From a virus (taxonomy: Duplodnaviria; Heunggongvirae; Uroviricota; Caudoviricetes): DNA of 10,639 nucleotides. Location of the stretch: the IMG/VR virus record IMGVR_UViG_2728369554_000001. One strand, given 5' to 3'. The translations under genes and the position numbers were made by a program. A model generated the notes under the pieces. The model did not search any database and was not told the origin of the DNA. It worked only from the letters and a program-made list of their open reading frames with translations. The stretch's first letter is position 1. Each line of letters starts with the position of its first letter. Positions 1 through 10,391 of this stretch are shown in pieces.

Positions 1-561
1 GCGCCAGTCGCCACTGCCGGAGCCTTCATAAGCAATATCAATGGCCACGGATTCGGTCGGGTTAAACTGCACGCCAGCCCCCCACGCCAGAGACGTGTTG
101 CTGTGGCGACCGTCATCACTTCCGGTCAGCACATCGTGCTTTTTCCCCTTGTTGTCAGTTACGCGAAGATAATCCCCGGAGAAAGTCGACACACGGCTGT
201 AAGCTACACCCGCCATCGCATACGCGCTGAACCATTCATTCACGCGCACAGACGGCCCCGCCATTACGCTGAACCAGCGGTTACGAACGGAATCTTCATG
301 CCAGCGGGTATCGCTGTAACGGGTCAGCTGGCGATTCTTGTCTCCTGCATAGCTGAATGACGTCACCAGCCCCAGTGTGTCCGTAAACTCATAACGGTAT
401 TTCACGTTAATCCCGTTCAGATCATCACTGCCGGGGACGTTCGTCGAGGCATGAAGATACCCCGCGCTCAGCGTGGACTGATGTTCAGACGCCCATGCAG
501 GCGCACCGGATACGGCCAGACAAATGGCTGCGGACAAAATGGCTGCACAAACTTTACGCAT
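1..561 (-). CDS. lom: Lom-family (Ail/OmpX/PagC-like) outer-membrane beta-barrel protein, prophage moron; partial, C-terminus runs off the window start
   Basis: Minus-strand ATG at 561..559 preceded by GAGAGG Shine-Dalgarno; my translation gives MRKVCAAILSAAICLAVSGAPAWA (signal-peptide-like) ... GINVKYRYEFTD ... SAYAMAGVAYSR ... AIDIAYEGSGSGDWR with no stop before position 1. Matches lambda Lom as recalled, and sits immediately downstream of J as in lambda. Absent from the ORF track because it has no in-window stop. Confidence 0.85.
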   Translation of the reverse strand, partial: MRKVCAAILSAAICLAVSGAPAWASEHQSTLSAGYLHASTNVPGSDDLNGINVKYRYEFTDTLGLVTSFSYAGDKNRQLTRYSDTRWHEDSVRNRWFSVMAGPSVRVNEWFSAYAMAGVAYSRVSTFSGDYLRVTDNKGKKHDVLTGSDDGRHSNTSLAWGAGVQFNPTESVAIDIAYEGSGSGDWR

Positions 562-628: not shown

Positions 629-3600
629 TCAGCTGATACTGATGCCTGCGGTGGCTTTCTTCATCACCACAACCAGCAAATCGCTGATACTTGCTGTGGG
701 ATACCAGTCATTTACCAGCCATGCTGACACCGAAAACTCCAGCGTCATGTGACCGTGACCGGCAGGCATATCAATAACGCCACTGTAAATCAGCGTATTA
801 TCCAGCGCGGTACGGTTATAAATTTCAGCACCGTTTTTCCGCACTATCAGACGGCATGAGGAGTAAATATCAGTATGCTCTCTCTCATGTTTAGCGCCGC
901 TGAATGCCACCGCAGGAATAACAATCTGCCGGTCAAACGGCTGATCGTCATAAACCCTGACGGTAATGGTCCCTGATGGCCACCGTTCCGGTGCACGGGA
1001 GTCCCGGGGGAAAGCTTTGCCCACTGTTTTAACGAGATCGCCTTCAATCTGGTTCGCGGACAGTTTTCCCAGAACCCGACAGTTCTCGTTAATCGTGACG
1101 TTGTTGAGCGTCCCGGAGTTCGCATTCACGTTACCGCTGATATCGGCATTTTTCGCCGTCAGCCGCCCATCCGGTGTCAGGGAAAATGCCGGAGGATTAC
1201 CGCCGCTGGTAATGGTCGGAGCCGTCAGGCGTTTCAGGAACACGTCGTTCATGAATATCTGATCGCCCTGACCAACAAACATTGGTCTTGTGTTGCCATT
1301 AGACGGATCAATAAACGCGATACGGTTAGCGGCAACCAGGAACTGGCTCAGTTTGCCTTCCTCCGTGTCCTCCATGCTGAGGCCAATACCCGCGACATAA
1401 TGTTTGCCGTCTTTGGTCTGCTCAATTTTGACGCCCCACATGGCATTCCACTTATCACTGGCGTCCTTCCACTCTTTCGAAAACTCCTCCAGTTTGCTGG
1501 CGTTATCCTCCGTCAGCTCGACTTTTTCCAGCAGCTCCTTGCCAAGATGGGATTCGGTTATCTGGCCTTTGAAAAAATCCAGGTAACCTTCCGCATCATC
1601 GCTCGCCCGACCAACAGCCTCCACGAATGCCGATTTGCCAACGGTGTTCACACTGCGAACGTAAAAATAATAATCATGGCCCGGCCTGATATTGATACTG
1701 GCAGCTATCCAGTACAGCGCAAGATAGCGGGCTGTGGTTTCAACCTGCCTGATATCCGCAATCCGTTTTTCCGAGAACCAGAACTCAAACTGTACCGTCG
1801 GGTCATAAACCGCAAGATGTGGCGTGGCGGTTATCTGAAAATAGCCCGGTGTCAGCTCAATCCGAGACGGCGCTGCCGGTGCGGCAATCCGGAACGATAC
1901 CGATGCCGGATCGCCCTGCAGCCCCCACGCATTTACCGCCCGGACCGTCAGCATGTAACGCCCCAGCGCCAGTTGCGTGAAGCGGTATGTGGTTTCCGTC
2001 GTCCGGGCCGTGCTGACCAGCCGCTCACTGCCGTCATCCGCTGCCACGGTCAGGCGAAGCAGGAAGCTCACGCCCTTCACCACTTTCGGCGTGTCCCAGC
2101 GGGCCAGCACCTGATATTCCCCGCTGTCTGCGGTGACTTCGGCAGTCAGGTGCTGCACCGCTGGCGGCGTGACACCATTCACCGTGCCGCTCTGGTCGCC
2201 GTCAAAGTGCGCCCCGTTATCCACGATGGCCTCTTTCTCCGGTACATGCTGCACGGCAGTGATGGCATACGTGCCGTCGTCGTTCTCACGGATACTCACG
2301 CAGCGGAACAGGCGCTGGCGCAACGTCGGCAACTTCAGCCCCCACACGCTGTATTCAGCAACGCCGTCAGGAACACGGCTCACTTTCACCTTCACGCCGT
2401 CGGTGACGGACTGGACCTCCACGCTGACCGGATTACCCTCACCGTCAACCAGGCTTATCAGCGTGGTGCCGGAGGATGGCAGCGTGATTTCACGGTCGAG
2501 CGTCAGCGTCCGGGTCTGGCTGTTCACCGCCAGCACGCGACCACCGATGCTGATACCGGCATAGTCATCATCGCAGATTTCAATAACATCGCCCGGCACA
2601 TGGCGAAGCCCTTCTGCGCCCACGCTGAAATCCACGGTCTGCGTTTCCAGCAGTTCCGTTTTAATCAGCCACAGCCCGGCTCGGTGTGCCTGCCCCCGAC
2701 TGGTACAACCAAAGGCATCCATCTTCGTGACATTACGACCGTAACGGGCAATGGCCTGCGTATCTTCAACAAGCTCTGTCGCCGTCTCCCAGCCGTTGTT
2801 CGGGTCAATCCAGTTCACCTCAACGGCATTATGGCGGTCCTTCAGGGCGCTGAAGCTGTAGCGGAACGGCGCGCCATCATCCGGCATCACCACATTACTG
2901 CGGTTATAGGTCCACACCTTATCCGATGGCCGGTCCTGCACGAACGTCAGCGTCTGCCCGTTCCATACCGGCATACAGCGCATCGCCGAGCAGAAATCAC
3001 TGAGCACATCCCACGCCTTGCGCTGTGTGGTCAGGTAAGCGTTACAGGTGATGCGCGGCTCCGTGCCGCCAAAGCCGTCCGGCACCGACTGGTCGCAATT
3101 CTGGCCGATGACATACAGCGCCCATTTATCCACATCCGCCGCACCAAGACGTTTCCCCATGCCGTAGCGCGGATGGGTCAGCATATCCCACAGACACCAG
3201 GCCATGTTGTTGCTGTATGCCGGTTTTAACGTTCCGTCCCAGATACCGCTGTATTGCCGCGTCTGCGGGTTATAGTTCGACGGCACCTGCAGAATGCGCC
3301 CGCGAAGATGATAATTACGGCTCACCTGCTGGCTGCCGAACTGCTCCGAATCCACCTGTACGCCGACCAGTGCCGTGTTCGGGTAGCACTGTTTCACATC
3401 GATGATTTCGGTGTATGACGACCAGAGCGTTTTGTTCTGCAGCTGGTCTGTGGTGCTGTCCGGCGTCATCCTGCGCATCCGGATATTAAACGGGCGCGGC
3501 GGCAGGTTATCCACCACCACCGAGGCCAGATACTGCGAGGTGGTTTTGCCCTTAATGGTGATGTCTTTTTCCGTCACCCAGCCACCGTTACGCTGTATCT

Positions 3601-4018
3601 GAACCAGCAGGCGGACTTCCGATGGATTCCTGTCCCCCTTTGAGGTGGTTTCCACCAGTGCCAGCACACCGAAGGTAAAGCGCAGACGGTCGATGTTTGC
3701 CGACGTGATGGTGCGGGTGATCGGCGTGTCATATTTCACTTCCGTACCCAGCACCGTCTCGGAGCCGGAGGATTCAAATCCCTCCGGCGGTGTCTGCTCC
3801 TGCTCACCTGCCCGGAACACCACCGTGACGCCGGAGATGTTGGTATTCCCCTCAGTGTCCAGCACTGGCGTACTGTTCAGCAGCACGCTTTTTAATCCAT
3901 CCACCGGACCTTCAATCGGCCCTTCGCTGATGGCATCGATCACACTCAGCAACTGCGTGGACTTCAGGTTGTCCTTCGCTTCGCGCGGAGTATGCCCCTT
4001 ACTGCTGCCTTTACCCAT
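629..4018 (-). CDS. J: Tail tip / central tail fibre host-specificity protein J (about 1129 aa)
   Basis: ORF-track ORF 629..4063; the first listed M is a GTG at 4063. The lambda-J-like N-terminus [34 protein letters not shown] begins at ATG 4018..4016. Near-collinear with lambda J as recalled over most of its length. Stop TGA at 631..629. Confidence 0.93.
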
Positions 4019-4078
4019 TCCTAACGCTCCATAAACGACAAAACCGCCCGGAGGCGGTTTCACATAAAACGTTTTTCA

Positions 4079-4726
4079 TCAGCGACCAATCACTACAACC
4101 TGACCACCATCCCCTTCGTCTGCCGTGCTGATCTCCTGAGAGACCACCCGCGACCCCACGCGCATTTCACCGTACAGAACGGGCAGAACATTGCCCTGGG
4201 CAACCATGTTATCCAGTGAGGAGAAATAGGTGTTCTGTTTGCCGTTATCTGTACTTGCTGCCGTGGGCGTCCTGGCTTTCGGTGCCAGCATCTGCGCCAC
4301 TCCGCCCAGGATCATACTGGCCCCTGCCGCATACATGCCCGATACAGCCGCGGCACCCAGCCAGCCCACAGGGTTCCACCATGCCACCGCAATCAGCGCC
4401 GCCCCCAGCACCACCTGAAACACACCGCCACTTTTAGCTCCCGCCAGACGCGGCACGATGTGGATCACGGCACCATTTGCCAGCGGCTCATTAAGACGGG
4501 CAGACAATTCGGTTTCACCTGCATCACGCCCGGCAATGCGTACCTGGTACCAGCCGTCGCTCAGTTTCTGACGAAACGCCGGGATCTGCATGGCCAGCGC
4601 CCGGATGGCTTCAGACCCCGTTTTCACTCGAAGGTCGATGCGGCGGCCAAATCGTTGTAAATCCCCGTAAAGGCAGATGCGTGCCATGCCCGGTGACGCC
4701 AGAGGGAGTGTGTGCGTCGCTGCCAT
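4079..4726 (-). CDS. I: Tail tip assembly protein I (215 aa)
   Basis: ATG at 4726..4724; protein MAATHTLPLASPGMARICLYGDLQRFGRRIDLRVKTG ... NGKQNTYFSSLDNMVAQGNVLPVLYGEMRVGSRVVSQEISTADEGDGGQVVVIGR matches lambda gpI as recalled. 60-nt gap before J, as I recall for lambda. Confidence 0.9.
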   Translation of the reverse strand: MAATHTLPLASPGMARICLYGDLQRFGRRIDLRVKTGSEAIRALAMQIPAFRQKLSDGWYQVRIAGRDAGETELSARLNEPLANGAVIHIVPRLAGAKSGGVFQVVLGAALIAVAWWNPVGWLGAAAVSGMYAAGASMILGGVAQMLAPKARTPTAASTDNGKQNTYFSSLDNMVAQGNVLPVLYGEMRVGSRVVSQEISTADEGDGGQVVVIGR

Positions 4727-5367
4727 TTGTCGGTATACCTCTCTCGTTTACTCAGTTGTTCAGGAATATGGTGCAGCAGCTCACCGTCGCCGCAGTAAAT
4801 GGCGGCATGATTCGGCACCGATGAACCAAAACAGCACAGCAGCACATCGCCCGGTTGTGCTGATGACAACGCCACCTGATACAGCCCTGTGGCCTCCAGA
4901 TTATCCAGATAGAGATTCTGACCGTTACGCCACCAGTCATCCCCGCGATGAAAATCCGGCATCTCAATCCCCGCCAGATGATAAGCATCCCGGAACAGCG
5001 TGTAACAGTCCGTCACCCCGTGCTCAAAGCGCCGCCCGGTGAGATGCGGCACACAGCGGAACTTGTGAATCGCCCCCCGGCAGACCAGCCACCACGGCAA
5101 ATCACTCTGCACCTGCAGCCGCCGGTCAGCCTCACTCAGCCAGGGCAGACCACCGGGATGACTGTGGACCAGTGCCACAATCTCACCCTGCATCTCTGCC
5201 TGCAGCCAGTCCTCCGGAGCCATCCGGAAATAATCCTCCGGCTCACCGGAAATATTCACGCAGGGAAAATATCTTTCCCCCTCCGGCGCTCTCACCACGA
5301 AGCCGCACGACTCCGCTGGCGCACATCGCCGGGCGTGCGCCAGAATCGCTGATTCTGTCTCTGTCAT
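4624..5367 (-). CDS. K: Tail tip assembly protein K, JAMM/MPN + NlpC/P60 two-domain protein (247 aa from the ATG chosen here)
   Basis: ORF 4624..5409 in track, but 5409 is a TTG. First ATG is 5367..5365 (MTETESAIL...), 4 nt after the L stop. Contains the JAMM-type motif HSHPGGLPWLSEAD and a downstream Cys/His-containing NlpC/P60-like region (DCYTLF ... HAAIY). 3' end overlaps the I start by 103 nt. Confidence 0.85.
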   Translation of the reverse strand: MTETESAILAHARRCAPAESCGFVVRAPEGERYFPCVNISGEPEDYFRMAPEDWLQAEMQGEIVALVHSHPGGLPWLSEADRRLQVQSDLPWWLVCRGAIHKFRCVPHLTGRRFEHGVTDCYTLFRDAYHLAGIEMPDFHRGDDWWRNGQNLYLDNLEATGLYQVALSSAQPGDVLLCCFGSSVPNHAAIYCGDGELLHHIPEQLSKRERYTDKWQRRTHSLWRHRAWHASAFTGIYNDLAAASTFE

Positions 5368-5371
5368 GGGA

Positions 5372-6070
5372 TTACTGCGAAAGTTTGTTAATGGAAAGGA
5401 AGCCGCCAAAGTTGCCGACGTTATTGCGAAACTTACAGCCGCTCAGGCATTTGCTGCATTTATCCTTCGTGATATCGGACGTCGGCTGGTCATATTCATC
5501 CGCGACTGCCGGACCGTGATAACCGCACTCATCACCGCGATAGGTCCAGGTGCAGGTGTTGGCCAGCATGATACGTCCCGGAAAAACAGCGCCGTCCGTT
5601 TCCGTCGGCGTGGACAGTACAAAAGAGGCACTCACCGCGCTCAGTTCGCTGCACTGCTCAATGCGCCAGCGGCTGATCACCTCCTGCTCCGGATCGGCGT
5701 CACTGTTTCCGTTGACGAAGTTCACCGCATCCAGAAAACGGGCGTAAACCTTACGCCGGACCACCGTTCCGCCGACCAGACTCTGCAGATCTTCCGCCAT
5801 CCCGGTGACCATACCGTACAGGTTAGAAACCGTCAGTGTCGGACGGGCAGCACTGCCCTTGCCGTTCAGTTCAAATCCCGTCCCCTGAATGGGGTATACC
5901 TGATACTGCCGCCCCTGCCAGATAACCGGCTCACCTTTTTCGTTCTGCTCATTACAGAAAAAATAACGTTCACCACCGACCTCTGTCAGATCGATTTCCC
6001 AGNNNNNNNNNNNNNNNNNNNNNNNNNNNNNNNNNNNNNNNNNNNNNNNNNNNNNNNNNNNNNNNNNNNN
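5372..6070 (-). CDS. L: Minor tail / tail tip protein L; N-terminal ~23 codons lie in the N run, start estimated
   Basis: Readable from 6001 downward: WEIDLTEVGGERYFFCNEQNEKGEPVIWQGRQYQ ... CSKCLSGCKFRNNVGNFGGFLSINKLSQ, stop TAA 5374..5372. Matches lambda gpL as recalled from its residue 24 onward. Start at about 6070 is extrapolated, assuming the 153-N run is true length. Confidence 0.8.
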   Translation of the reverse strand, partial: XXXXXXXXXXXXXXXXXXXXXXXWEIDLTEVGGERYFFCNEQNEKGEPVIWQGRQYQVYPIQGTGFELNGKGSAARPTLTVSNLYGMVTGMAEDLQSLVGGTVVRRKVYARFLDAVNFVNGNSDADPEQEVISRWRIEQCSELSAVSASFVLSTPTETDGAVFPGRIMLANTCTWTYRGDECGYHGPAVADEYDQPTSDITKDKCSKCLSGCKFRNNVGNFGGFLSINKLSQ

Positions 6071-6155
6071 NNNNNNNNNNNNNNNNNNNNNNNNNNNNNN
6101 NNNNNNNNNNNNNNNNNNNNNNNNNNNNNNNNNNNNNNNNNNNNNNNNNNNNNNN
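6003..6155. other. Run of 153 N (assembly gap or masked bases) spanning the M end / L start junction
   Basis: Directly visible in the sequence. Confidence 0.99.
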
Positions 6156-6395
6156 TTTCCAGTCATAAGGTGGCGTCCACTGAAATGCACGGACGCCACC
6201 GTGCCGTTCCAGAAAGGCTTTTAAAGATGGGTGGTCACATTTACGAACACGTATCGTCACGCTGTAAGTCGACAACTGGTTATTCAGTCCCGCCGCACGA
6301 CGCTGTTCATAACCATCGCCCAGCTTCACTGTCACCACTTTCGGCTCTGATACCACATTCATATCCGGGCGCACTTTCCAGTGAAACGTCTCCAT
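6066..6395 (-). CDS. M: Minor tail protein M; C-terminal ~29 codons lie in the N run, end estimated
   Basis: ATG 6395..6393; METFHWKVRPDMNVVSEPKVVTVKLGDGYEQRRAAGLNNQLSTYSVTIRVRK ... WTPPYDWK (80 aa readable) matches lambda gpM as recalled. The ATG overlaps the H stop (TAATG). End coordinate extrapolated from the lambda M length (109 aa) as recalled. Confidence 0.8.
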
Positions 6396-9300
6396 TACCG
6401 ATATGCTCCACTTAACCGACCACCATCACGGGCCTGCTGTTGCATAAAGTCCGCTGCCGCTTTTTTCCCGAGGTCATAAACCGCCTTCAGGGCAGCCGGA
6501 CCTATCTGCCCGTTCGTGCCATCGTTATTGATCTCGATGTTGTACTGCGGGGAAAACATCGCCATACCTGACCCCCCAATATCCGCCACAACCCCCAGCT
6601 TACCGTCAGCACCACGACGCAATGGCAGAATGGCTTCAGGTCCCGCTTCCCCCATCACACCCGCGCCTTTTGCAAAAGCAAAAAACGTCGGACGGTTAAC
6701 CACCGTGCCACTGTAACGACTCAAATCAGCAGACTGATAAATCCCCCCATTGGCATTCAGGGAAAGGCTGCTGAGATCAAATCCCAGTACACTGCCAATC
6801 CCTTTTATCGATTTCATCATGGTTGCCTGCGCCAGGATTTTCGCCATATCTGACAGCACAGAAGAGGTGAAGGATTTGAAATTGAGTTTGCCGGTAGTGA
6901 CAAAAGTTGCCAGGCCATTTCCCATGTTGCTGAAGGCTGACGAGAACACCTGTTCTGCTGTTTCTGCCGTATTATCTGCATCCACGGTAAAATCCTGAAA
7001 TGCACGCAGGACTCCGTTTTTCCAGTTACCCTGCACAACTTCAAGCTGTTGCCAGTAACGGCGATTCTCATTCAGTTGTCGGTTCAGGCTCTCCGTCAGC
7101 GCCTGCTCGGCCTTTCTGTAGTCATCCGTGTTATATGTCCCTTTCTGCTCACTATCCCGCCTCAACNNNNNNNNNNNNNNNNNNNNNNNNNNNNNNNNNN
7201 NNNNNNNNNNNNNNNNNNNNNNNNNNNNNNNNNNNNNNNNNNNNNNNNNNNNNNNNNNNNNNNNNNNNNNNNNNNNNNNNNNNNNNNNNNNNNNNNNNNN
7301 NNNNNNNNNNNNNNNNNNNNNNNNNNNNNNNNNNNNNNNNNNNNNNNNNNNNNNNNNNNNNNNNNNNNNNNNNNNNGTCGCTGATGCGCTGCTGCAGAGC
7401 CAGAAGCTGTTTATGCGCTTCTGTCATCCTTTCCGTGGCAATGCCTGCTGACTGTCTGGCAGCAGCAATCTGTCCTTCCACCTGTGCCTGTTGCTGACTG
7501 TACTGCAGCAATAACCGGGTGGCCTCATCATTACGGGTTTCGCGTGTTTTTTTCTTACCGGATGCCAGGGCTTTCTCGTAACGTTCATTTTCACGTTGTA
7601 TCGCCGCATCCCTGACAGCCTGATCGGCGTACTGCATGGCATTAATACGCGCAATTTCACGCTGATGTCGTGCAGCTTCCGTTTCATTCATCCGGTTCAG
7701 TGCAGCATTTTCAGCATTACGGCGTTTCTGTTGCTCCTGATAATTCCGCTCTGCCTGCTCTTTTGCATCCTGCAAATCCTTCTGGCGTTTTTTCTCCTGA
7801 AGATCGTTAAGACGCTGCTGATCGTATTCAACCTGAGAAGATGATGCCGTCCAGGGGAGTCTTTTCGCCCGCGACACTTTCTCCTGTAAAGCGGCAATCT
7901 GTTCATCCAGCGAGTCTTCACGACCAATATTCATGGCCGCATCCCAGAAACGACTCCACAAATCAGACAGATACTTCAGCGTACTGCCAAGCGCATTGAG
8001 GTTATTATCAATATCCGCAGTACGCCGACCGGTTTCCTCTGCCAGTGCAGACATGGCTATCCGTGCAGCATCACTGGACCGCCCCTGCTCCCCAAGGACG
8101 CGTATCTGCTCAAGCTGAGTGGCAGTAAGAAAATGCAGCTCATTGTCCAGAGCCTTCGCGGCATTTACAGGATCATCCTTCAGCCGCTTAAACTGATTTA
8201 TGGTATCGCTGACCGACTGGCCAACCGATCGCTCCATCTGTGCGGCAGCTCTCGCCACCATACCGATATCGTTTCCACGAAATGCACCACTCCCCACCAC
8301 CTGAGCCAGCGCACCGGCTGCAGCATGTTGCGTGATACCATTCCCGGAAATAGCACGACTGAGCGTCCACAGCTGCCCGGCAGTGACTCCGGCATAATGC
8401 CCCGTCAGCGACAGCTGGCGGTTAAATTCTTCCCCCTCCTTCTGACCGTCATACCAGGCTTTACCCAGGCCATAGACAGCCGCGGCAATACCGCCAATAA
8501 CCCCGCCAAGCATCATGCCTTTCGGTGACATCAATGTGTCTATCCACCCAGCACGGTTAGCCAGCGTTATTCCGGATCCCCTCAGCGCACCTAAATTTCC
8601 GCGGGCCAGTTCACCTATCAGAACGCCTATCTCCTGACGGGCCGCTGCANNNNNNNNNNACTGGCGGTTAAATTCTTCCCCCTCCTTCTGACCGTCATAC
8701 CAGGCTTTACCCAGACCATAGACGGCCGCGGCAATACCGCCAATAACCCCGCCAAGCATCATGCCTTTCGGTGACATCAGTGTGTCTATCCATCCGGCAC
8801 GGTTAGCCAGCGTTATCCCGGATCCCCTCAGCGCACCTAAATTTCCGCGGGCCAGTTCACCTATCAGAACGCCTATCTCCTGACGGGCCGCTGCACTTTT
8901 CAGCCCCAGCGAATGCGTGGCTTTTCCTGCCTGCTCCATTTTGCGGATATACACTTCTGCAGCACTGCTTACCCCCAGCTGGGCAGCCTTAGCACGAAGC
9001 AACTCAGAAGAAGAAAGATTCTGGCGGGTTGCCTGCTCTTTAAGCTGACGGATAAACGCCACTTTCTGTCGGGTAGCCTCTTCCTCAGCCTGTGTAAGAA
9101 NNNNNNNNNNTGCCTTAGCACGAAGCAACTCAGAAGATGAAAGATTCAGGCGGGTTGCCTGCTCTTTAAGCTGACGGATAAACGCCACTTTCTGTCGGGT
9201 AGCCTCTTCCTCAGCCTGTGTAAGAACACGGGTTTTCGCCGTAACCTCAGAAATCAGCGCCAGATAATCCTGCTGACCAATCCCGCCACTGTTTCTGGCC

Positions 9301-10069
9301 TGTCGGATCTGCTGCTGAATACGCTGTAATTCCTGCAGCCCCGCACTGGCCTGTTTCACACTGTCAATCTGACGATAAAACGCAGCAGCCGCTTTATCCT
9401 GAGCCTCCGCCAGAGCCATGGCCTGCGCCTGTTCCTCGCGCATTTTCTGGCTCAGTGCCTCCATGCGCTGGCGGGTTTTCTCCACCTCGCGGGCCATGCG
9501 TTCATGAGCCTGTGCGTTCTTCTCCACCGTCTGCGCATGGACGGATGCGGCTGTTGCAGCCGAAGAAGCTGCCTGCGTTGTCTGCCGGGCGGCCTGAGTC
9601 TGACGCTCCATAAAACGCTGCATACGGGCAGAAGACCGTTCTGCATCGNNNNNNNNNNACCCGCACTGGCCTGTTTCACACTGTCAATCTGACGATAAAA
9701 CGCAGCAGCAGCTTTATCCTGAGCCTCCGCCAGAGCCATGGCCTGCGCCTGTTCCTCGCGCATTTTCTGGCTCAGCGCCTCCATACGCTGGCGGGTTTTC
9801 TCCACCTCGCGGGCCATGCGTTCATGAGCCTGTGCGTTCTTCTCCACCGTCTGCGCATGAACGGATGCGGCTGTTGCAGCCGAAGACGCCGCCTGCGTTG
9901 TCTGCCGGGCGGCCTGAGTCTGACGCTCCATAAAACGCTGCATACGGGCAGAAGACCGTTCTGCATCGCTGGCTGCACCATTCAGAAGGTTTTTGATACG
10001 GGGGATTTCATTTTTAAACTCTGCCGCATCAATCCCCAAATCAATGACCAGGTTGGCTATCTGGTCCAT
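6395..10069 (-). CDS. H: Tail tape measure protein (lambda H-like); as assembled it is broken by a 210-N run, three 10-N joins with duplicated flanks and two frame changes
   Basis: N-terminus MDQIANLVIDLGIDAAEF at ATG 10069..10067 with GGAGGTG Shine-Dalgarno 8 nt upstream (track start 10099 is a TTG). Coiled-coil-like Ala/Gln/Arg/Glu-rich middle and a hydrophobic Gly-rich segment (MMLGGVIGGIAAAVYGL). C-terminus INNDGTNGQIGPAALKAVYDLGKK ... RDGGRLSGAYR matches the lambda gpH C-terminus as recalled. Stop TAA 6397..6395. True length cannot be stated from this assembly. Confidence 0.85.
7167..7376. other. Run of 210 N inside the tape measure gene; reading frame differs on the two sides
   Basis: Directly visible. 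The frame carrying H above the run (ORF 7152..9623) is not the frame of the H C-terminal ORF (6395..7165), although 210 is a multiple of 3. Confidence 0.99.
8415..8895. repeat. Direct duplication, 235 bp x 2 (8415..8649 and 8661..8895), separated by exactly 10 N; assembly-join artefact candidate
   Basis: Copies align at offset 246 with 6 mismatches; N run at 8650..8659. Confidence 0.9.
8986..9226. repeat. Direct duplication, 115 bp x 2 (8986..9100 and 9112..9226), separated by exactly 10 N; assembly-join artefact candidate
   Basis: Copies align at offset 126 with 2 mismatches; N run at 9101..9110. Confidence 0.9.
9340..9968. repeat. Direct duplication, 309 bp x 2 (9340..9648 and 9660..9968), separated by exactly 10 N; assembly-join artefact candidate
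   Basis: Copies align at offset 320 with 6 mismatches; N run at 9649..9658. Offset is not a multiple of 3, so it splits the tape measure ORF into two frames. Confidence 0.9.
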
Positions 10070-10391
10070 AACGCACACCTCCGGAAATACCTTCCCCAAG
10101 ATGCATCAGTTCTTCGTCCGTTCGCTCCGGTATCCCGTTCTCTTCCGGTAAAAGGCTGAAATCAGCCACCGCAGCATCACTGCTGCCGGACACCATTCTC
10201 ACGATCAATGCCTTCAGCGAGGCAAACTGCGCATCCATCCACACATCACTGAAGCTCTGCATCCGGAAATAATCGCCCCACTCACCAAGCTCAGTGGCCG
10301 ACATTTCCGACAGCATCCGCCGCCAGTCTGCCCGCCGGAACTCCCGGGCAAGCCGCATGACAAACTGCATTTCCCGCGTCAGGACTTTTCC
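10041..10391 (-). CDS. T: T portion of the tail assembly chaperone GT fusion, entered by -1 programmed frameshift from G
   Basis: The -1 frame relative to G is open from the candidate slip site (10391) to a TGA at 10043..10041 (ORF-track ORF 10041..10370). Position between G and the tape measure and overlap with the G end are the conserved G-T architecture of long-tailed phages. No sequence match to lambda T is claimed. Confidence 0.6.
   Translation of the reverse strand, partial: GKVLTREMQFVMRLAREFRRADWRRMLSEMSATELGEWGDYFRMQSFSDVWMDAQFASLKALIVRMVSGSSDAAVADFSLLPEENGIPERTDEELMHLGEGISGGVRYGPDSQPGH

Follow-up and report, generated by a model that had tools for sequence, protein, structure and literature searches.

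Gene J and its exchanged C-terminal cassette

We examined gene J, which encodes the tip attachment protein (central tail fiber), in a stretch of lambdoid Escherichia coli prophage DNA from the IMG/VR virus record IMGVR_UViG_2728369554_000001. The whole stretch, here called the window, is 10,639 nucleotides (nt) long. J lies on the minus strand at positions 629 to 4018 and is an intact open reading frame (ORF) of 1129 amino acids (aa), counted from the ATG, plus a stop codon, with no runs of N. Its Pfam matches comprise FNIII-A_GpJ, Phage-tail_3, Ig_J, Ig_J_second, Phage_Tail_Tip, and Ig_GpJ_C (E = 3e-33 to 7e-43), which is the full lambda gpJ series (6/6 families) in the lambda order. Overall, the protein is 89% identical to lambda J (NC_001416) by BLASTP. 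A lambda-like body, aa 1 to ~950 (positions 1169 to 4018, minus strand), holds the hub domains, two FNIII/Ig domains, the helical shaft, and most of the beta-prism. The remainder, aa ~951 to 1129 (positions 632 to 1168, minus strand), consists of the last beta-prism layers and the Ig-like receptor-binding domain, and is the exchanged specificity cassette described below.

An earlier note on this DNA, made from the letters alone, had claimed that J resembles lambda J for about 980 residues and diverges over its last 150 or so. This is borne out by alignment. Residues 1 to 974 are 96.6% identical to lambda J (943/976), whereas residues 975 to 1129 are 43.6% identical (68/156), a contrast with a Fisher p of about 1e-59. 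Amino acid differences at this end of the protein appear first at residues 952, 963, and 972 and are dense from residue 977. The span that the note had singled out, positions 632 to 1090, corresponds to residues 977 to 1129, and the peptides it quoted are found there. In blastn comparison with lambda, the DNA is homologous from gene L as far as window position 1079 and no farther. J nt 1 to 2850 are 95.0% identical to lambda and the nucleotides after them 57.9%, and in a sliding comparison identity falls from 92 to 99% to 50 to 67% across the last ~540 nt of the gene. The C-terminus is thus identical neither to lambda J nor to a J with a proven LamB receptor, and at 43.6% identity the LamB-binding tip of lambda (lambda residues ~975 to 1132, including the LamB-contact loops) is not what this gene carries.

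The tip has a close relative elsewhere. Compared with J of VT1-Sakai, an O157:H7 prophage, the DNA is 73.6% identical over J nt 1 to 2850 and 97.8% identical over the last 540 nt. A count of mismatches per 30 nt shows many against VT1-Sakai until about nt 2790 and nearly none thereafter, while those against lambda climb from about nt 2850. Protein identity over aa 975 to 1129 is 98.1% to VT1-Sakai (152/155), 60% to the gpJ variant A8, and 43.6% to lambda. The body is therefore closest to lambda and the tail closest to VT1-Sakai, with the switch at J nt ~2800 to 2850, and this mirror-image change in identity, lambda down and VT1-Sakai up, shows that the tip is a swapped cassette that arrived by recombination and not a product of local drift. 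The same tail is also found on other J bodies. J of the sequenced phage PhiR55_1 has a different shaft, longer by 28 aa, yet from residue ~931 to its end it differs from the window J at V1022I alone. The occurrence of one tail on both the VT1-Sakai and the PhiR55_1 bodies upholds the suggestion, made in the earlier note, of a mosaic receptor-binding module.

Between the two parts lies a zone with few mismatches to both lambda and VT1-Sakai, upstream of which only lambda matches well and downstream of which only VT1-Sakai does. From the mismatch counts per 30 nt, the boundary can be placed to within about 50 nt, in J nt ~2800 to 2850 (aa ~934 to 951; positions 1169 to 1219, minus strand). This stretch, ...[17 protein letters not shown]..., shows conservation across lambda, VT1-Sakai, PhiR55_1, and A8 and is the likely crossover site. 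The DNA crossover thus falls ~80 to 130 nt upstream of where the earlier note had begun the divergent region. This position is the sole refinement that its observation needs, which is otherwise confirmed in every respect.

Modular exchange of this kind has been described. In the account of Maddamsetti et al. (2018, PMC6646904), J residues 960 to 1132 form a specificity region whose recombination is independent of the remainder of the protein, and hot spots of natural indels lie at lambda residues 1012, 1048-49, 1077-78, and 1107. The J described here is one instance of that module. Their study assigned no receptors to natural J alleles, which is where the prediction made below differs from it.

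A further patch of divergence lies within the lambda-like body, at window positions ~1262 to 1328 (J nt 2691 to 2757, aa ~897 to 919), where 17 mismatches to lambda fall within 67 nt. The residues that diverge from lambda are S906, T910, R911, G916, and D919, and several of these agree with PhiR55_1 ([13 protein letters not shown]). The pattern suggests that, upstream of the main cassette, a further small patch was acquired by recombination.

Fold of the tip and its probable receptor

Despite its divergence, the tip keeps the lambda fold, as had been surmised from its residue pattern. Pfam Ig_GpJ_C (PF12421) matches residues 999 to 1129 (positions 632 to 1024) with E = 3e-37. We modeled the last 203 residues as a monomer with AlphaFold. 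The predicted local distance difference test (pLDDT) score is 78 to 96 across the receptor-binding domain (aa ~994 to 1122) and below 50 in the beta-prism (aa 927 to 993), which is unsurprising in a segment whose folding requires the trimer, and the receptor-binding domain alone was used for comparison. Foldseek returned the central-fiber tips of A8 gpJ and lambda gpJ as the best matches to the model (E = 6e-22 to 2e-19). By sequence, the closest solved structure is 9wca/9wcb, "A8 gpJ 713" (E = 9e-85, compared with 5e-64 for lambda gpJ), of which PDB 9wcb shows the A8 tip in its open state bound to OmpC variant G17 of Escherichia coli EDL933.

DSSP applied to the AlphaFold model predicts loops in the receptor-binding domain at aa 1002 to 1015, 1047 to 1048, 1072 to 1074, 1085 to 1090, and 1102 to 1113 (positions 703 to 1015, minus strand). 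These predicted loops hold the indels that separate the lambda, A8, and window alleles, and among database representatives of the allele family, polymorphism is concentrated at residues 1043 to 1051, 1088/1090, and 1101/1104. In the model, R1046 adjoins the 1047-48 hairpin and D1104 lies within the 1102-1113 loop. These predicted loops may be the ones that contact the receptor.

The identity of the receptor is suggested by work on engineered particles. Brödel et al. (Nature 2024, PMC11338833) attached C-terminal parts of natural gpJ variants to lambda gpJ to redirect particles from LamB to OmpC, and characterized two of the chimeras, A8 and 1A2, in detail. In an MG1655 host deleted for lamB and ompC and supplied with OmpC variants from a plasmid, 1A2 particles at the highest multiplicity of infection gave 76 to 99% green fluorescent protein-positive cells for 20 of 23 OmpC variants, while G1, G2, and G40 gave 2% or less and wild-type lambda gpJ in the same kind of strain gave 3% or less (PMC11338833). 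By matching the source-data values for 1A2 and A8 in PMC11338833, we identified G1 as the MG1655 (K-12) allele. This agrees with the separate finding in that study that A8 delivers via both MG1655 and EDL933 OmpC, whereas 1A2 does so efficiently only via the EDL933 variant and does not accept the K-12 protein.

The window tail is nearly identical to that of 1A2. The 1A2 gene is available in the PMC11338833 supplement as machine-converted PDF text with bases dropped and added, so we read it by frameshift-tolerant protein-to-DNA alignment; of 190 positions, 7 were unreadable and 5 showed apparent substitutions beside obvious conversion errors. Three differences between the window J tail and 1A2 were clearly read, R1046K, D1104N, and S1127T, and VT1-Sakai J carries exactly K1046, N1104, and T1127. 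Given these three matching positions and the 152/155 identity of the window to VT1-Sakai, the 1A2 tail appears to be a natural allele of the VT1-Sakai/O157 type, which fits its efficient use of EDL933 OmpC. By tail sequence, the window J likewise carries a 1A2/VT1-Sakai-type cassette. The two proteins have the same architecture, a lambda-type body with a near-identical tail (98.1% over aa 975 to 1129, taking VT1-Sakai as the counterpart). They differ in that the 1A2 body is identical to lambda, whereas that of the window J is 96.6% identical, and in that recoding has left the 1A2 tail with 69% DNA identity to the natural allele. The 1A2 fusion point falls between residue 952 (a lambda-like K) and residue 963 (a window-like N), at most ~10 residues from the natural switch described here.

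The VT1-Sakai record (AP000400) presents J, at locus 1100-4572, as two overlapping coding sequences annotated "truncated by a mutation." Thus, the J of the prophage that matches the reconstructed 1A2 tail is itself frameshifted.

Other J proteins frame this comparison. A8 gpJ (PDB 9wca, closed; 9wcb, OmpC-bound) has a fold like that of the window tip and takes the trimeric porin OmpC as its receptor, and the two proteins have a framework and a C-terminal strand ([18 protein letters not shown]) in common. They are 60% identical over aa 975 to 1129, with a 4-residue deletion in the first loop of A8 and a 5-residue insertion in its 1047-48 hairpin. By loop lengths and sequence, the window tip is thus not of the A8 type but a sister allele (Foldseek E = 6e-22). 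With lambda gpJ, solved in complex with LamB (PDB 8xcj/8xck; PMC11101478), the window J shares the domain order, the Ig-like fold with four bottom loops, and the placement of that fold at the end of the beta-prism, and presumably also the mechanism of signal transmission. The tips differ, at 43.6% identity, as do the receptors, LamB for lambda compared with the OmpC predicted here; an OmpC loop clashes with the open lambda tip (PMC11101478). J of the Salmonella prophage Gifsy-1 (PMC12312913) and J of phage 434 resemble the window J by description, with the N-terminal ~964 residues conserved, the C-terminus replaced, and OmpC as the receptor. The C-terminus of Gifsy-1 J is reported to be only 18% identical to that of lambda and to bind OmpX and BtuB as well (PMC12312913). 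We also considered Phi21 as a natural OmpC-using relative and rejected it, as Phi21 natively uses LamB and gains OmpC or OmpF only by mutation (PMC11336670). A receptor-prediction preprint (10.64898/2026.04.02.716166) was uninformative, since its gpJ analysis covers Drexlerviridae and excludes the tip of lambda.

Taken together, the near-identity of the window tail to 1A2, which is active in cells deleted for lamB and ompC when a suitable OmpC is supplied, supports the idea, raised in the earlier note, that this tip may target an outer membrane receptor other than LamB. The same near-identity, joined to the OmpC data for 1A2, makes OmpC binding the most likely function of the window tail. We consider it probable, by analogy with this 98%-identical protein, that the tail binds OmpC in an allele-dependent and LamB-independent manner. 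The underlying finding is already known: it is a correct reading of a described modular exchange, and the receptor has been determined on a near-identical allele.

The course of events would then be as follows. A lambda-like J body most likely gained the 1A2/VT1-Sakai cassette, about the last 180 residues, by homologous recombination in the ...[17 protein letters not shown]... stretch. The trimeric tip would insert its bottom loops into the extracellular mouth of trimeric OmpC, and binding would spread the three receptor-binding domains. The resulting signal would run up the beta-prism and helical shaft and cause the tail tip to open, allowing DNA ejection. Which hosts can be entered would be set, independently of LamB, by the recipient's version of OmpC, with most natural alleles accepted and that of K-12 excluded. 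For the opening of the tip, we infer this mechanism from the lambda gpJ-LamB structures (PMC11101478) and from the existing A8 gpJ-OmpC complex.

Weighing of the alternatives

Several considerations weigh against the assignment of OmpC as the receptor. Two of the three differences from 1A2, at residues 1046 and 1104, lie in or beside predicted variable loops, so the range of OmpC alleles could differ. Lambda-type tips can gain the use of OmpC or OmpF by few mutations, which shows that porin specificity is labile in the gpJ fold (PMC11336670). The equation of the 1A2 tail with that of VT1-Sakai is inferred from the readable positions of a noisy PDF. In addition, the window is a scaffolded draft from which the completeness of the prophage cannot be judged.

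The draft state of the window bears on two further explanations. One is that the junction inside J is an assembly artifact that joins contigs from two lambdoid prophages of a single genome. The window is indeed scaffolded. Five runs of N, at positions 6003 to 6155, 7167 to 7376, 8650 to 8659, 9101 to 9110, and 9649 to 9658, comprise 153, 210, 10, 10, and 10 bases, and at each 10-N run, all in the tape-measure gene, the preceding sequence recurs after the Ns with few single-nucleotide polymorphisms (roughly 310, 116, and 236 nt). These repeats are overlapping contig ends joined with spacers, a draft-assembly artifact and not biology, and the duplicated ends explain both the broken ORFs of gene H and a window ~589 nt longer than the matching stretch of E. 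coli APEC O1. The E. coli genomes that match the tail also hold a median of 2 copies, a further point in favor of this explanation. However, not one of the N runs falls inside J, and many complete genomes, APEC O1 and S88 among them, align with the entire window at 99.5 to 99.6% identity in 6 pieces, the number expected from five N runs plus one; strain 504838 matches the J tail at 100%. Since J is free of N and complete genomes carry a colinear J with the same junction, J lies within a single piece, and we reject the chimera as having practically no chance of being correct. A second explanation is that the prophage is defective and its J an inert leftover, the receptor specificity of which no longer matters biologically. 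Defects are common among E. coli lambdoid prophages, the VT1-Sakai J is itself annotated as truncated by mutation, and a scaffolded window of 10.6 kb does not allow prophage completeness to be assessed. We nonetheless regard this as improbable, because J is an uninterrupted ORF of 1129 aa flanked by recognizable I, K, L, and lom genes, the near-identical APEC O1 locus has a full head and tail module, and the same variant functions in phage PhiR55_1.

The remaining alternatives concern the receptor itself. If the tip still used LamB as lambda does, its divergence would reflect neutral drift or antigenic variation. The fold and several framework motifs (FPR, DRQ, DMPAG) are conserved with the lambda tip, and Phi21 J natively uses LamB (PMC11336670). 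Against this stand the 98%-identical 1A2 tail, which works in lamB-deleted cells in dependence on the supplied OmpC allele where the tip of lambda fails, the low tip identity to lambda (43.6%), together with an indel in the hot spot that lies close to lambda residue 1107, and the fact that the closest structural relative is an OmpC-bound tip. Retention of LamB is thus very improbable. A subtler possibility is that the R1046/D1104/S1127 micro-variant recognizes a set of OmpC alleles other than that of 1A2, or a further porin besides OmpC, owing to differences in putative receptor-contact loops. The two patches richest in polymorphism (1043-1051 and 1101/1104) contain positions 1046 and 1104, which lie next to predicted loops and adjoin the natural indel hot spots at lambda residues 1048-49 and 1107 (PMC6646904); 1A2 and A8 already accept differing OmpC alleles; and PhiR55_1, with the same variant at 1046/1104/1127, is recorded with E. 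coli C as its host. On the other side, R/K, D/N, and S/T are all conservative changes, and the acceptance of 20/23 OmpC alleles by 1A2 makes a broad OmpC range the default expectation. It is therefore possible but rather unlikely that the variant recognizes other partners in this way, and we are similarly doubtful that the R/D/S variant of the window, PhiR55_1, and the APEC O1/S88-like strains has an OmpC range measurably unlike that of K/N/T, for example by accepting alleles that 1A2 rejects.

Binding to OmpC thus stands as the favored function of the tip, and the window variant itself is found in a viable phage. R1046, D1104, and S1127 are all present in PhiR55_1, the sequence record of which lists E. 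coli C as the host, and plaque (efficiency-of-plaquing) assays have been run with a temperate-phage panel that includes PhiR55_1 (PMC13190303). The R/D/S variant is therefore functional in a viable phage. Our literature search found no report of the PhiR55_1 receptor; the source study, Brenes and Laub 2025, lay outside that search.

Prevalence of the cassette and the surrounding tail module

The tail DNA (window positions 629 to 1090) is widespread. Of 5426 complete E. coli genomes, 3399 contain a match, the median being two copies in each genome that has one, and in 2380 records the best match is at least 95% identical. The tip DNA of lambda itself is found in 98 of the same 5426 genomes, and the five best matches listed all come from laboratory strains, among them derivatives of K-12 and B as well as the DE3 lysogens C41, C43, and BL21. 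The rarity of the lambda tip (98 versus 3399) indicates that divergence from lambda is normal for E. coli prophages. Among sequenced phages, tails are at least 94% identical to that of the window in 57 records, mostly Stx-converting and ompW-integrated O157 prophages, 60 to 80% identical in 88, and below 60% in 105. The last class includes lambda (46.7%) and the mEp460/2851 type (43 to 45%).

Annotation by similarity to lambda would wrongly suggest LamB for this protein, the predicted receptor of which is OmpC. Within the allele family, the small loop polymorphisms may be what tunes the OmpC-allele range, a point of relevance to the design of phage-derived delivery particles. Were the range of the micro-variant indeed to differ, single loop substitutions in a very common cassette would tune which E. 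coli lineages a lambdoid prophage can enter.

The genes around J match this picture of a lambda-type tail-tip operon, with L, K, I, J, and lom on one strand in the lambda order. Upstream of J, the tail-tip genes (positions 4079 to 6001, minus strand) comprise I at 4079 to 4726 (Pfam Lambda_tail_I), K at 4624 to 5367 (Prok-JAB and NlpC/P60), and L at 5372 to ~6070 (Phage_tail_L), one end of which lies in a run of N. Downstream of J, as in lambda, lies lom (positions 1 to 561, minus strand), which encodes an Ail/Lom outer membrane protein, is cut at the window edge, and matches Pfam Ail_Lom with E = 2.5e-114; the same gene is annotated in APEC O1. The colinear prophage of E. coli APEC O1 is fully annotated, with the full head and tail module from the portal to the tail fibers.

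Two smaller features lie within J. Short ORFs overlap it in other frames, for example at 847 to 1125 (minus strand) and 966 to 1262 (plus strand), and nothing points to these being genes. At window positions ~1720 to 1725 (J residue 766), inside the second Ig-like/FNIII domain, the residues GT are missing relative to lambda and PhiR55_1, so that RYLGTALYW becomes RYLALYW.

Upstream of J, similarity to lambda again changes along the window. L, K, I, and the J body (positions 1079 to 6002) are 92% identical to lambda at the DNA level. In the tape-measure gene H and upstream (positions 6395 to 10100), the C-terminus of H is 32% identical to lambda H and 84% identical to that of PhiR55_1. Judged by these identities, the tail module is mosaic beyond J. 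PhiR55_1 is reported to be modestly inhibited by the SNIPE defense system in a ManYZ-independent manner, in a study in which tape-measure clades correlated with ManYZ dependence (PMC13190303). Given the likeness of its tape measure to that of PhiR55_1, the window prophage may also enter cells independently of ManYZ.

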